Below, piece by piece: positions 21,696-63,884 of a DNA stretch of 64,000 bases. The position numbers were made by a program, and so were the translations under genes. How positions within the stretch are numbered: position 1 is the first letter of the stretch; each line of letters begins with the position of its first letter. Source of the stretch: Eledone cirrhosa (taxonomy: Eukaryota); assembly GCA_964016885.1 (NCBI GenBank), contig OZ024748.1, positions 36,270,001 to 36,334,000 of the forward strand, written 5' to 3'. The notes beneath the pieces were generated by a model. That model was not told the DNA's origin and did not search any database. It saw nothing but the letters and a program-made list of their open reading frames with translations.

Positions 21696-22511
21696 GTAAT
21701 AATTAGATTGATAATTTGTTGGAGTTTTATTTTAATATAAACAGTCGTAATTACATACTGCAATATAATATACACACACATACACATACGTACAAAGACA
21801 CAGCCACAAACACACACACACACATATATATATATATATATATATATATAGGTGTAATCTGATTGTGTTGGTCTATACACATTTGAATATCATACAAGAT
21901 TTGAGTGTTTAATTATAGTGGGAGAATAACGTCTGTAATGTTTCACAATATATATATATATATATATATATATATATATATATATATATATATATATATA
22001 TATATTAAACAAGCAAATTATAAACGTAAACATGTAAGTATGTTTTTGAAACGGTGCGCGAGTTTCAAATTAGAAATTATAAGCTTTCACCGTATTTTGT
22101 ACGGCAACACTCAACTTTTTCCATTTCTCTGAGGGTTATAAACCCCACTATCAGCCTAGAAATTTCTTTAGTGTAAAATACGGTGAAAGCTTATAGTTTC
22201 TAAAATTTTTTCCTATTTCCCACTCTACTACCCTAAGTATTGAGTACTCTGGTGCGTTATGGTCCATCTGGTTCCTTACCACATTTCCTTTATTATATAT
22301 ATATATATCTATATGTAGATAAATCTACCAAAATAAACGGTTGTGTCCAATCCGTATGAAGAACTCAATGTAATCCAAATATAGAAGATATCATGAAAAG
22401 AGAAAATGCATTCAAAATTTAACGATAAAAATCATAGGAAAACAGAGTCAAGATAAATTAATAAAAACAATGAAATAAAAACAAAGAACAGGTTCCTTAT
22501 ATTGAAAAAAA

Positions 22512-22650
22512 TCATCATTTTGCGATCGTTTCTGGGATATATATGTGTTGGTATGTATATCTTATTAAAGATCTATGTAAAAAAATATTACAAATTATCA
22601 GAGGAGATATACATACCTTCACTTATATATGCCATCTTCAGAAATTATGA
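22512..22650 (-). ncRNA. Type I hammerhead, long-stem-II family (cleavage triplet mutated to GCA)
   Basis: TCATAATTT-CTGAAGA-long stem II-GAAAC GATC GCA-AAATGATGA. Confidence 0.6.
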
Positions 22651-25108
22651 AGTATGTTTATTGTAAGAAACAAAGTATTAATACAAAAAGTCTGTTTGGG
22701 AATAGGTTTTGAATTGACCAATAGAAAAGAGTTAGAGGTCAAGTTAATAGAATAACAGTAGTAGAACTTTATGCTAGGAGTGGAGGAATGTAAATTTACG
22801 CTTTGAATGAAAAGAATACAATGAGGAAGAGAGAGATAAGGTTAAAATGAGGTCAAGTCAAGGAGATAGTGAAGGATTCCCCCAAAAATTGATTTTATTA
22901 AAGAATGCTGTTAAAAACGAAGGGAACATTTTTTTTTTTGTTGGGTGAAAGTGTTAGTGAGAGATACTACTGTTTAAATTTCAAGGAACCTAGATACATA
23001 AAAGGAAATTAAATTAATTGATAGGTATACTTATAGAGTTAAAATTATATTAATTCTTATGAATGTGATAAATAAAGAAGTAAAAAAAAAAAAAGTAAAA
23101 ATATATATATAGAAAAACTGAAATAGATAAAATATTATAAAAAGTAATGTATCTATCAAAACATCCATAATATTAAAGATATTAATTATATTTACTAATC
23201 CTAGGTATTAAATGTGATAGATATGGGATGCGGTTAAAGGAAGTAGTGAGGTTAAAGATAACTTTAGGTAAAGTGAACTGCAAGAGGGAAATAAAATGAT
23301 GATATCCTCTGTAGTAAATATTTAATTATAGGTTAACTAAATTTAAAAAAAAATTTTTAATTAATTATAATAATTTGTAAAATATAAGAGCGAGGTATAT
23401 ATTAATTAAGTTTATAATATTTGAAGGTTTTTTTAATTCTATGATTGCATGATATAATTAATTCCTGTCGCTTATTTAATAGGATATTATTAGATTTCAT
23501 GATTTCAAATAGTTCTTGGGAGCATAACCTACACTCATATCTGCTATTTTGATAAGGGGTGGCCCTTTTGAGTACGCTCCAGGTCAGGTTGTAATCAATG
23601 TCCTTCTTTCTATAATTATTAATTGCTTCAGCCAAGGAGGTTGGAGGTTGTATTAGCTAATGCGGCATTTTTAAAACTATGTTTGTGGGTATTAAATCTT
23701 ACTTTAAATTGGTTAGACGTAGCTCCTATATAGGATTGAGTGGAGTCCTTAGTACTAATTACACAATTATAGACTATGTTATTAATAAGACAATTTCCCT
23801 TTAATGGGCAATTTCTTTTGATTCTACAGTTACAGCCATTCGTAAATATTGTATCAGAAGTGTTAATTGTGTTATCTATAGTGGTATTAGTGTTAGTATT
23901 TACATTAACGTATGGTTTAAAATGGGTTGTAATTAGATTAGTATGGTTAGACAGGTTGTTGGTGGGTCATAGTTTAGTGGATGTGGAGCGAGTAGAGTTC
24001 TGCTTGTTTTGGAGATTATTAGTCAAAATTGGTTTGGAGTTTAGGTGAAGAAGAAGGTGGTTTGTTTGGGTTTATTTTAGTATTATTATGGTTGGTTTGA
24101 TGTGTTGGTGGTATATTTATGGTTTTATTACACTTATATGTGTTGTAAGCACTTATATTCTGTTGTATATTCTTGGTAGTGGAGTAGGAAAATTTGACAG
24201 TAGATCTATTTAAAATTTGATGGTATTTATGGTTTGGTTGGAAGTTTTTCTCTAGGATAGCAAAGAATTTTTTAGGGATATGGTCTTTAATCTGTAAATT
24301 AAATGGAGCATTATACCAAGTAACTCGTCTATAACGGTTTCGACATTGTCTCTTATATTTATATGATGTATCGGGAGGTTTACTGAGAGAGTTAGTATTA
24401 GTGATTTTATTAAATATAGGTTTAGTTAGATTAATTGATGTTTTAGTCTGATTACTACAGAGAATTTCATAATTTTATTTCCCTCTTGCAGCTCACTTTA
24501 CCTAAAGTTATCTTTAACCTCACTACATCCTTTAACCGCATCCCCTATTTATCACATTTAATACCTATCATTAGTAAATATAATTAATATCTTTAATATT
24601 ATGAATGTTTAGATAGATACACTACTTTTTATAATATTTTATCTATTTCAGTTTTTTATATATATATATATATTTTTTTAACTTCTTTATTTATCACATT
24701 CATAAGAATTAATATAATTTTAACTCTGTAAGCATACCTATCAATTAATTTAATTTCCTTTTATGTATCTAGGTTCCTTGAAATTTAAACAGGAGTAGTA
24801 TCTCTCACTAATACTTTCATTACACAAAAAAAATGTTCCCTTCGTTTTTAACAGCATTCTTTAATAACATCAATTTTTGGGGGAATCCTTCACTATCTCC
24901 TTGACTTGACCTCATTTTAACCTTATCTCTCTCTTCCCCATTGTATTCATTCAAAGCATAAATTTACATTCCTCCACTCCTAGCATGAAGTTCTACTACT
25001 GTTATTCTATTAACTTGACCTCTAACTCTTTTCTATTGGTCAATTCAAAACCTGTTCCCAAACAGACTTTTTGTATTAATACTTTGTTTCTTTCAATAAA
25101 CATACTTT

Positions 25109-25236
25109 ATCATTTCTGAAGATGACATATATAGGTGAAGGTATGTATATGATAATTTGTAATATTTTTACATAGATCTTTAACATGATATACATACCAA
25201 CACACATATATATCCCAGAAAAGATCGTAAAATGAT
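25109..25236 (+). ncRNA. Type I hammerhead, long-stem-II family (stem III mismatch)
   Basis: ATCATTT-CTGAAGA-...-GAAAAGATCGTA-AAATGAT. Confidence 0.6.
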
Positions 25237-61182: not shown

Positions 61183-61800
61183 TATATATATATATATATT
61201 TTCTTAATATTTTTCTTTTTTCTTTTTCTTTTTCTTTTTCTTTCTAAATTTATAGATACATTTATAAATAGGCAGTTTGCTGACACCAGTCAATACTGAC
61301 CTCTTCCCCCCCCACCTACTTTCTGTATCTGGATCTAAATATGTGTGGCAGTGTTTATGTGCGCGCATTAATGTCCATATGCTTATGATAATAGTATATA
61401 CACATATATGTGTGTGTGAGTGTGTGTGTGTATGTATGTTCGTGGTTGTGTGTATGTTTATGCGTATATGCGCGTGTGTGTGTGAATGTATGTATATGTG
61501 TGAGTATATGAATGTGTATATATTTATTTTTATATTTATATGTTTATATGCGTATATGTATTTTATCTGTAGATTATAAACATACAGAGACATTAGCCCT
61601 GAATTTTTGTATTTACATACATCTTTTCGGCATGCGTATGCATGTGAACATATATTTTTATGCATATCTGTGAACGAAGTTACTTACATATATACACACA
61701 CCTAACTGTATAAACTTTTTGTGTTTCCATTGGTCAATTTGAACTCTGTTCCCAAACAGACCTGTAATTTTGAATTGTTGTTATTATCAATAAATATATT

Positions 61801-61952
61801 TCATTATTTCTGAAGACGGCATATATATGAGTTGGTATGTGTATTTAATTTTGATAGTTTGTATAATTTTGTATAATTTTGTACATAGATCTGTTAAATA
61901 TACATGCCAATTCTAACACATATATATCCCAGAAACGATCGTTAAATAATGA
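61801..61952 (+). ncRNA. Type I hammerhead, long-stem-II family, intact (GUU), in PLE 3' end (~61270-62150)
   Basis: TCATTATTT-CTGAAGA-..ATATATATG..TTGGTATGTGTATTTAA...TTAAATATACATGCCAA..CATATATAT..-GAAAC GATC GTT-AAATAATGA. Confidence 0.85.
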
Positions 61953-63842
61953 ACTTTTTTTGTTTAATATAAGGAACTGTTTCATTGTTTTATTCATTAT
62001 TTTTTTAATATTTTATCTTGACTCTGTATTCCGTTTATCTTTCACCGAAAGTGATTTTTCATTGCATCTCTTCTTTCCATGATATCCGGATTACATTGAG
62101 TTCTTCATACGGATTGGACACTACCGTAAACTCTTCGTAGATTTATCTACATATATATATATATATATATATATATATACACACATACACACACATACAT
62201 ATATATACATATATACACACACACACATATACATACACACACACATATATATATATATATACATATATATTTATATATATATATATACATATACACACAT
62301 ACATATATATATATATATATGCACATACACACACACATACACACCCATGTATATATACGCAACCACACACACACACACACACTCAGACATACATATATAT
62401 AGAGACATACACACACATATATGTGTGTATATATATATATATATATATATATATAAATACACATGCATGTATTTTAATGTATTTTACTACCGAAGTCAAC
62501 TCATACATTAAAATACATGCACAGGGCTTACGAAACATGAAACGGCATTAAATAAAATCAGCGTTAAATAAAATCAAGAAGAGAAGTTAAGTTGTCTTAC
62601 ATGATATAAAGACATTAAAATATATTTCATAAAATTACATGAAATAATTACATAAATAAAATAGATATGATGAGAATCAACTGAGATAATGTGAAGAGGT
62701 CCCCACATTGTTTGGGGCAGAAATGATTATGGACGGAGCAAGAAGCAGCCAAAGTTTTCTTGGAGCCTGTTTTTCATTAACACTATCGTTCGTGTTTCTT
62801 TTGGCTATATTTTAACCTCTGCAATTAACACTTTGTCTTCCTAGAAGCTGTCCATCATTTCACTCAGGGAAACGTGATATTCTCTAGAGGGTTGCCAACC
62901 AACAAACTATTCTTGCCATTTCAATTTAGTGGAGCTGCCTTTTTATTTCTTCTTTTGTTCTTGCATTCTACACAGTTCCCGAACGGGAGATGTGACTATT
63001 AATACAATCAGGTCAAGCACGTCCTTTCTTATTGTTGTTGCTTAACAGAGGTCCACACTGATCGATGTAAAACATTCAATCCCTGACAACTCCACTCTTT
63101 TTAGGTGAAGAGGATGTATTTATGTTGGATTACATTATGCAATGTGCCCGTCTTTTCTAAGACGCTAGCGTGTGATTTGATAGGATTGGCTGTTAGTTTT
63201 AGTAAGTCGAGCATCCACATAGAGGATCACTTTTATGCTGATAGTGGTATATTTGTGACTATGTCAATTCTTTTGAAAGTGTTTTACATTGTGTTTGAGA
63301 CGGAACATTTGGGATGTTATCACATTTCTGAATTTGTGCGTTTCGGATCCGAGCAGATTTTCTCTGAAGTAAATAAAGTAAAATAAAAACAAATGAAAAA
63401 CAAGTACAAAAAAACATTATTTGACATAATTTTTTAATATAATTTTTGACAATTTTTTAAATATATTTTTTTTCCTCTCATCTGTATAACTTATGGTTGG
63501 TGTCTATTTTTAGTTCCTAATTTTGAAAATTGTGTAATCATTTTAGGCAGCAGAGGTATGTAACCACACACACGTATATATATATATATATATATATATA
63601 TATATATATATATATATATATATATATATGAATTAAAAACGACAAAATATTGTTTAGAAAACTTAAGAGAAACACAAACATAAGGATGCTATAAAGCTGT
63701 GCTACCATGTCCGGGTTCAATTTCAGAAAAACAGGAAACACACACAAACGCATGTGCAAACAGAGACAGAGACAAGAATAAATAAAAAAATAAAATAAAA
63801 ATGGTGTAGGCATTACTATAAAATGGAAGGAAACATAATAGC

Positions 63843-63884
63843 ACCACTGATGATGTCACAGATGTGTGACGAAAGAACTTTGAT
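63843..63884 (+). ncRNA. Minimal hammerhead related to the 36591 motif (weak stem I)
   Basis: ACCA-CTGATGA-t-GTCACA gatg TGTGAC-GAAAG AA CTT-TGAT. Confidence 0.65.

Follow-up and report, generated by a model that had tools for sequence, protein, structure and literature searches.

Hammerhead motifs in TA-rich DNA of Eledone cirrhosa as probable tips of Penelope-like elements and non-coding repeats

We analysed 64,000 nt of the 3.0-Gb genome of Eledone cirrhosa (GCA_964016885.1, contig OZ024748.1, positions 36270001-36334000; this whole stretch is hereafter the window), in which tracts of the dinucleotide TA occupy the part from 22 to 64 kb and many of the islands between them can be folded as hammerhead ribozymes. 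We find it very likely, at a rough probability of 0.87, that these hammerheads tip Hydra-clade and Neptune-type Penelope-like elements (PLEs) together with three non-coding repeats, and that the reverse transcriptase (RT) and GIY-YIG endonuclease of the PLEs likely paste them into (TA)n. Heavy 5' truncation spares just the final 100-300 bases, so that many islands amount to hardly more than a ribozyme. The window is one typical TA-rich patch, and the system is genome-wide, not local.

Hammerhead folds in the window

A scored type I descriptor, run on the CUGANGA cores between 22001 and 64000, accepted 21 of 34 cores as canonical hammerheads, compared with a mean of 0.025 and a maximum of one motif in 80 local dinucleotide shuffles; an initial descriptor with no mismatches allowed had recovered only five. 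The accepted motifs have the type I architecture, with CUGANGA, GAAA and NUH joined through stems I-III and stem I open. Five further hammerheads have variant cores, two of them with a U3-A8 pair (45612+ and 45944-) and three with A at core position 4 (46774-, 47128- and 47606+; A4 below), and two, at 27692 and 38263-38337, required folding by hand, since stem I is bulged or stem II mismatched. The total of intact type I motifs is thus 28, or 28-30 with the weakened motifs at 63847+ and 46443-, in addition to about 13 broken or half motifs. By self-comparison and clustering they fall into 13 families, 11 of which have intact motifs while J and M occur as broken copies only.

These figures bear out a first-pass annotation made from the letters alone, which had counted about 30 motifs from about 11 modules and had proposed shuffled sequence as a control. 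A type I fold was recovered at all 11 sites that it had named, nine with the scored descriptor (26326, 30717, 36591, 37532, 41822, 45044, 57974, 61074 and 61800) and two by hand. Its proposed check with Rfam models came out negative: in the window no hammerhead model matched at its gathering score, and no hammerhead was among the best 150 of the 563 E-value matches. We attribute the lack of a match at the curated score to the minimal forms found here, which have no modelled loop 1.

Further evidence for the fold comes from the stems. Across family A and its sister families (8 distinct rows), 6 of 14 pairs are altered on both sides, a compensatory score reached by none of 500 shuffles, in a test that the kinship of the sequences inflates. 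Stem III is, as first suspected, often palindromic: of 17 distinct short stems of even length, 13 form a perfect palindrome that takes in the loop; such palindromes are described as a mark of dimer-type hammerheads (PMC4209133). Collectively, the sequences and stems indicate that the motifs are genuine hammerhead folds, for which self-cleavage is predicted.

We also looked for permuted hammerheads (type SGC/CSG), which are defined by blocks in non-circular order (PMC10085705), and rejected them. The window held none, and a genome sample (regularly spaced 10-kb stretches of the large contigs, 99 of the 100 planned, 990 kb) gave eight non-type-I matches versus six and two in two shuffles, in a search that would miss a helix completed by an additional strand.

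Parent elements of the families

We traced 8 of the 13 families to 5'-truncated PLE tails, six of the Hydra clade (B, D, F and H and, more weakly, L and M) and two of Neptune type (E and K), and three (A, G and I) to non-coding tandem retrozymes. Clades were assigned by protein motifs, the Hydra-clade marks being RWx, DKT, a CxCx5C linker and GIY-YIG at the C terminus (PMC8557442); a Pfam search assigned the PLE frames to no family.

The fullest case is family B, whose truncated copy at 54060-62147 (+) is colinear with a tandem unit elsewhere: an open reading frame at 54060-56360, frameshifted near its end, is followed by an AT-rich untranslated region (UTR), an internal TA/TG tract, a hammerhead with a long stem II at 61800 and a fixed end at 62147. 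The parent is a 6.65-kb Hydra-clade unit that contains an 811-aa frame and is arrayed head to tail; the motifs RWR, DKT, YRDD, CxCx5C and YIG are found in intact genome copies, and the 64 scored copies are 96-100% identical in amino acids. Three more traces of family B lie in the window, namely an older inverted insertion at 22313-25285 (endonuclease fragment 23405-24453(-), hammerhead 25107(+), and a hammerhead at 22641(-) that is dead, with U16.1 changed), a stub at 40260-40811 with an outward pair (40464-/40609+) using one long and one short end, and a diverged 3' end at 53028-54040 (-) with a hammerhead at 53088. Stem II of the family (25107, 40464, 40609, 53088 and 61800) is an imperfect hairpin of about 95-115 nt, kept across subfamilies that are about 75-80% alike.

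In family D, an outward pair at 59336-61180 (59468- and 61074+), what remains of a second Hydra-clade element is its 3' ends; relatives lie at 30717(-) and 41822(+), and a deleted copy at 41117(-). A Hydra endonuclease lies upstream on the same strand at 10 of 13 loci, and the protein has RWRA, SDKT and YRDD motifs; a further link via locus L114 was judged coincidental. The 3' UTR of a third Hydra-clade element makes up family F at 25640-26441 (+; hammerhead 26326), which has the endonuclease upstream at 3 of 9 loci plus L290, with CxCx5C and YIG motifs. Family H is a stub at 44997-45110 (-; hammerhead 45044) of a very young 5.1-kb Hydra-clade element: all 41 scored copies are 100% identical, and the tandem unit has an 844-aa open frame with the full Hydra motif set. 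Family L, an inverted insertion at 27458-27856 whose hammerhead at 27692-27800(+) has a bulged stem I, has an upstream Hydra endonuclease at the single locus L018. Like family M at 51858-52960 (+), which holds a Hydra endonuclease fragment (51941-52337) and mutated hammerheads at 51926(-) and 52727(+), it was assigned by similarity to B only.

Of the Neptune-type families, E is a decayed element at 34322-36665 (+) with a hammerhead at 36591 and an inverted half copy at 34322-34364, assigned from the linker and decayed endonuclease in the decayed frame upstream of the motif in the window; the motif at 63847 is a weakened relative. Family K is present as two stubs at 45581-46012, the 3' ends that carry the U3-A8 hammerheads. 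An RT/endonuclease frame lies upstream at 6 of 9 loci and is whole in L289, where DKG, a CX2-5CxxC linker and GIY-YIG are present. The element there also has a second, 409-aa frame upstream that overlaps the RT frame (L289:5600-6826 (-)).

Families A, G and I consist of tandemly repeated non-coding units, each with a single type I hammerhead; their longest ATG frames measure 70, 81 and 34 codons, respectively, and none has a PLE protein match. Family A forms an array at 48300-51790 (-) of six 489-570-nt units, with intact hammerheads at 48637-51250, an internal (TA)n of 41-107 nt in each unit and an inverted partial copy at 51503-51790, as well as an outward-facing inverted pair at 36768-37930 (37140- and 37532+). 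Genome-wide, a first look gave 983 candidates, with 99% identical copies and tandem periods of 479-543 nt. A sister of the family, a 466-nt retrozyme array with 16 hammerheads, lies just downstream of the window (L062:6880 to L063:3870). Family G is a 541-nt unit at 38010-38580 (-), with a long stem III in its hammerhead at 38263-38337, a short terminal direct repeat and 2,796 candidates genome-wide, tandem copies among them. Family I, a 354-nt tandem unit with an inversion at 46397-47733, includes the three A4 hammerheads and the weakened 46443-.

Two families stand apart from these. Family C lies at 57974-58107 (+), its hammerhead having a monomer-type stem III, with broken copies at 38696-38870 and 56933-57064. 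Family J is a fold-back of half hammerheads at 31100-31283 and again at 33881-34069, and its tails occur at 22203 and 38585. In the full copies found elsewhere in the genome the core is of U3-A8 or C3-G8 type. Further repeat stubs lie beside TA tracts (26789-27290, 29895-29935/30572-30625, 40150-40254, 43680-43895 and 46060-46240), and several of them are hammerhead-family tails with the ribozyme part cut off.

Most of these features have published counterparts. Hydra-clade PLEs as described in PMC8557442 share the RWx, DKT, CxCx5C and GIY-YIG motifs, the canonical 3' hammerhead, (TA)n insertion and inverted truncated copies, and the supplement lists Hydra-1_Obim of Octopus bimaculoides with a (TA)n preference and a hammerhead. 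They are generally shorter than 3 kb there, whereas here they reach 5.1-6.65 kb with UTRs rich in TA/TG repeats, extend on one side by 70-150 nt rather than 30-40, and number six families or more in a single window. Neptune-type PLEs in the same source share DKG, the CX2-5CxxC linker, GIY-YIG, a microsatellite bias and a hammerhead in the 3' repeat; family K, of this clade by its motifs, differs in its U3-A8 core and second upstream frame. Metazoan non-LTR (long terminal repeat) retrozymes (PMC7229834; bioRxiv 10.64898/2026.07.22.740005) are likewise non-coding and tandem, with a single type I hammerhead in every unit, a low GC content and PLEs as neighbours. The units here, known from DNA alone, measure 354-541 nt, are TA-anchored and have PLE-type inverted arms; they differ further in the internal microsatellite of family A, the A4 core of family I and the lack of detected homology to the coding-family ends. 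Finally, the minimal PLE hammerheads of PMC4209133 share the many families per genome, the predominance of single truncated copies, the palindromic stem III, the U3-A8 variant and opposite-strand pairs 100-700 bp apart; thousands per genome are given there, as against about 3x10^5 estimated here.

Insertion ends, TA targets and competing explanations

The position of the motifs relative to TA is one-sided. After removal of six doubtful motifs, a (TA)n tract lies downstream of the cut site, at most 250 nt away, in 103 of 123 sampled motifs and upstream in 37 of 123, compared with 27% of random positions. Motif number correlates with TA content (Spearman 0.59), and the 21 bins with <0.5% TA hold none. 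Furthermore, most families have two fixed 3' ends, one short and one long, each followed by TA (61-74/199-207 nt in B, 11-22/89-93 in C, 21-26/90-112 in I), and inverted pairs use one of each. Opposite-strand neighbours face outward in 22 of 25 cases. Read-through copies continue with AT, TAT or ATA at the fixed end points, which fits priming by a TA 3' end. A TA preference, inverted copies and tails have already been described for Hydra elements (PMC8557442).

We propose that multimeric transcripts would be cut by their hammerheads, as dimers where stem III is palindromic, and that the cut RNAs would then likely be circularised. The endonuclease would nick (TA)n, which is identical on both strands, and short AU patches in the RNA could serve both DNA ends as priming sites, giving the short and the long end. 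Reverse transcription would then proceed back across the cleavage site: the cut site lies upstream of the ends by about 11-340 nt, so that copying has to cross it, and the template was likely a circle or an uncut multimer, as has been proposed before (PMC4209133).

The elements also carry TA themselves. Each unit of family B contains ten (TA)8+ tracts and each unit of family A one, and internal (TA)n stands at a fixed place in all four copies of K with a whole UTR and in all four copies of F; the A and B bodies together hold 21% of the TA bases of the region. The internal tract of the window's B copy holds nested elements of families C (twice) and D. Since at least four families (A, B, F and K) carry (TA)n, their insertions likely lay new targets on which further elements pile up. 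Seeding of microsatellites by the 3' ends of long interspersed nuclear elements (LINEs) is already known (PMC6050309), and our literature search found no loop in which cargo and target are the same. We consider it possible, at somewhat less than even odds, that such a self-feeding loop built about 300,000 hammerheads, above any count we found in print, and that the 354-nt A4 retrozyme of family I cleaves.

Several observations weigh against this account. Families C and J have no linked coding locus, and the parent links of L and M come from one locus each. Minimum-free-energy folding recovers the hammerhead stems in only some monomers. The units of A, G and I gave no blastn match to the seven coding-family ends with which they were compared, and the enzyme that moves them is thus suggested by end structure only. 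Family D has no fixed internal TA (present in two of five copies, at different places), family H has only one internal tract of 16 nt, and only one (L089) of eight other B copies examined had a member of the queried families nested in its UTR. Family N, the 3' fragment of an approximately 605-nt tandem unit at 30255-30458 (+), has no recognisable hammerhead; this non-coding family (including L221-L270) gave 4,454 first-look candidates, mostly direct partial tandems. As it ends in (TA)n all the same, TA insertion does not require the ribozyme, and the family may be moved by another PLE clade or may carry an unrecognised ribozyme. A junction-spanning type II hammerhead was considered for N and rejected, its CUGAUGA being paired inside a long hairpin, and a generic search gave 8 matches versus 5, 10 and 6 in shuffles.

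Some of these points would suit an explanation in which the hammerheads are mostly inactive passengers, with arrays and pairs arising from uncut read-through RNA or DNA-level duplication. Elements spread without a canonical hammerhead in the cases of family N and of Naiad, and family I spreads despite its core change; in addition, published activity in vitro is weak, minimal PLE hammerheads cleaving weakly (PMC4209133) and one of nine frog retrozyme dimers being cut (bioRxiv 10.64898/2026.07.22.740005), which counts against our account as well. However, core and stems are kept in about 30 unrelated families, with compensatory changes, U3-A8 covariation and palindromic stem III, and the core of family I is less variable (4/539 letters) than the rest of its unit (342/9,382). 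We regard inactive passengers as improbable, although as the likeliest of the competing explanations.

Still less probable is that there is no target preference and that the TA tracts grew later from AT-rich element ends. The ends are indeed AT-rich, several families have internal TA and the LINE precedent exists (PMC6050309). Yet at both ends of an insertion, families unrelated to one another break off sharply at points of their own, each then followed by TA, C and D sit inside a pre-existing tract of B, and the TA preference of Hydra elements is reported across phyla (PMC8557442). That the matches arose by chance, or from errors of assembly, in DNA of low complexity can be set aside almost entirely. 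There are small assembly indel errors nearby, and one decoy core gave 18 matches, all in one AT-rich satellite bin; against this, the sampled bins hold 102 canonical motifs compared with 0, 1, 0, 2 and 1 in shuffles, none in reversed sequence and 0, 1 and 0 for three other decoy cores, and the families recur across the genome and in short-read contigs. The shuffle, reversal and decoy controls refute such an origin.

Genome scale, the A4 family and the surroundings

Extrapolation of the sample gives about 3.1x10^5 canonical motifs genome-wide (bootstrap 2.2-4.0x10^5), with variants and broken copies excluded. The density per base is similar to that in Schistosoma mansoni. Published counts are about 38,500 hammerheads for the latter (PMC2770079), and 126,247 in axolotl, more than 6,000 in 16 families in coral and about 5,000 in mussel (PMC7229834). 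The sample contains about 30 families after removal of 6 of 36 clusters as doubtful (F15, F23, F24, F30, F31 and F32); the family clustering beyond the window that the first-pass annotation had suggested was in this way carried out on 99 sampled 10-kb bins. The window has 5 motifs per 10 kb against 1.03 in the sample, an excess that falls to about twofold per TA tract.

The annotation had envisaged a community of PLEs and non-coding units sharing a TA-targeting machinery, and the community, with its TA-adjacent fixed ends, stands. Other parts of its picture do not: the modules are not short, 8 of 13 families being the truncated ends of coding elements of 3-7 kb; nor is the core invariant, as U3-A8 and A4 variants occur; and the local density is not exceptional, since 7 of 99 sampled bins hold at least five canonical motifs and a neighbouring 10-kb bin has 16.

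In family I, core position 4 is A instead of U in 67 of 69 copies (some loci overlap), while the stems are intact and the usual two ends are present. None of 16 subfamily sites falls within the 51-nt fold, where about two were expected, and short-read contigs of run X1 show no variant at 5% or above at the position-4 base. Nine intact copies in 990 kb correspond to roughly 27,000 genome-wide. Family I is classed by its fold as a hammerhead variant, and it may be a slow or dead ribozyme. The natural core variants named in the text of PMC3088659, its figures aside, are U4C, A6C and U3-A8, and a literature search for A4 core strings found no paper, although published variant catalogues may still list A4. 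The genome sample also contains hammerhead folds whose core position 4 is C (L018:3272, L018:4489 and L099:7443).

The element classes, the TA preference, the palindromic stem III and the U3-A8 core are already in print, and these known classes explain the system well. Our literature search found no report of comparable scale, of elements carrying their own TA target or of a 354-nt retrozyme fixed for A4, and the word ribozyme is absent from the main text of a 2026 octopus repeat annotation (PMC13282606). The interest lies in scale and testability, in the elements that carry their target and in the A4 family. With about 30 families per megabase sampled, this is a very large natural hammerhead library with young, intact enzyme-coding partners, which makes testable the role of the hammerhead in Penelope transposition, the enzyme that moves retrozymes and the origin of two-armed insertions from fixed priming points. 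Own-target carriage, if true, would help to explain TA-rich patches in such genomes, and the A4 family lends itself to testing the strictness of the catalytic core.

Outside the families, two exons of a C2-domain protein lie at 28220-28410 and 29396-29524 (+; weak Pfam C2 match), which we take to be synaptotagmin-like, and the elements at 22-29 kb probably lie within introns of this gene. The first exon has two frameshifts that the short-read contigs of runs X1 and X2 do not show and that are thus likely assembly errors. Both runs cover an intron without splice joints and so behave as DNA; they may come from the assembly's own sample. Positions 1-11200 are part of a long short-period satellite that extends about 80 kb upstream without a TA tract or hammerhead. 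Decayed LINEs with AP endonuclease and RT, presumably RTE-like, occupy 11864-14861 (-) and 19218-20785 (+), and a tandem repeat of about 45 nt at 31715-33750 has a GC content above its surroundings.

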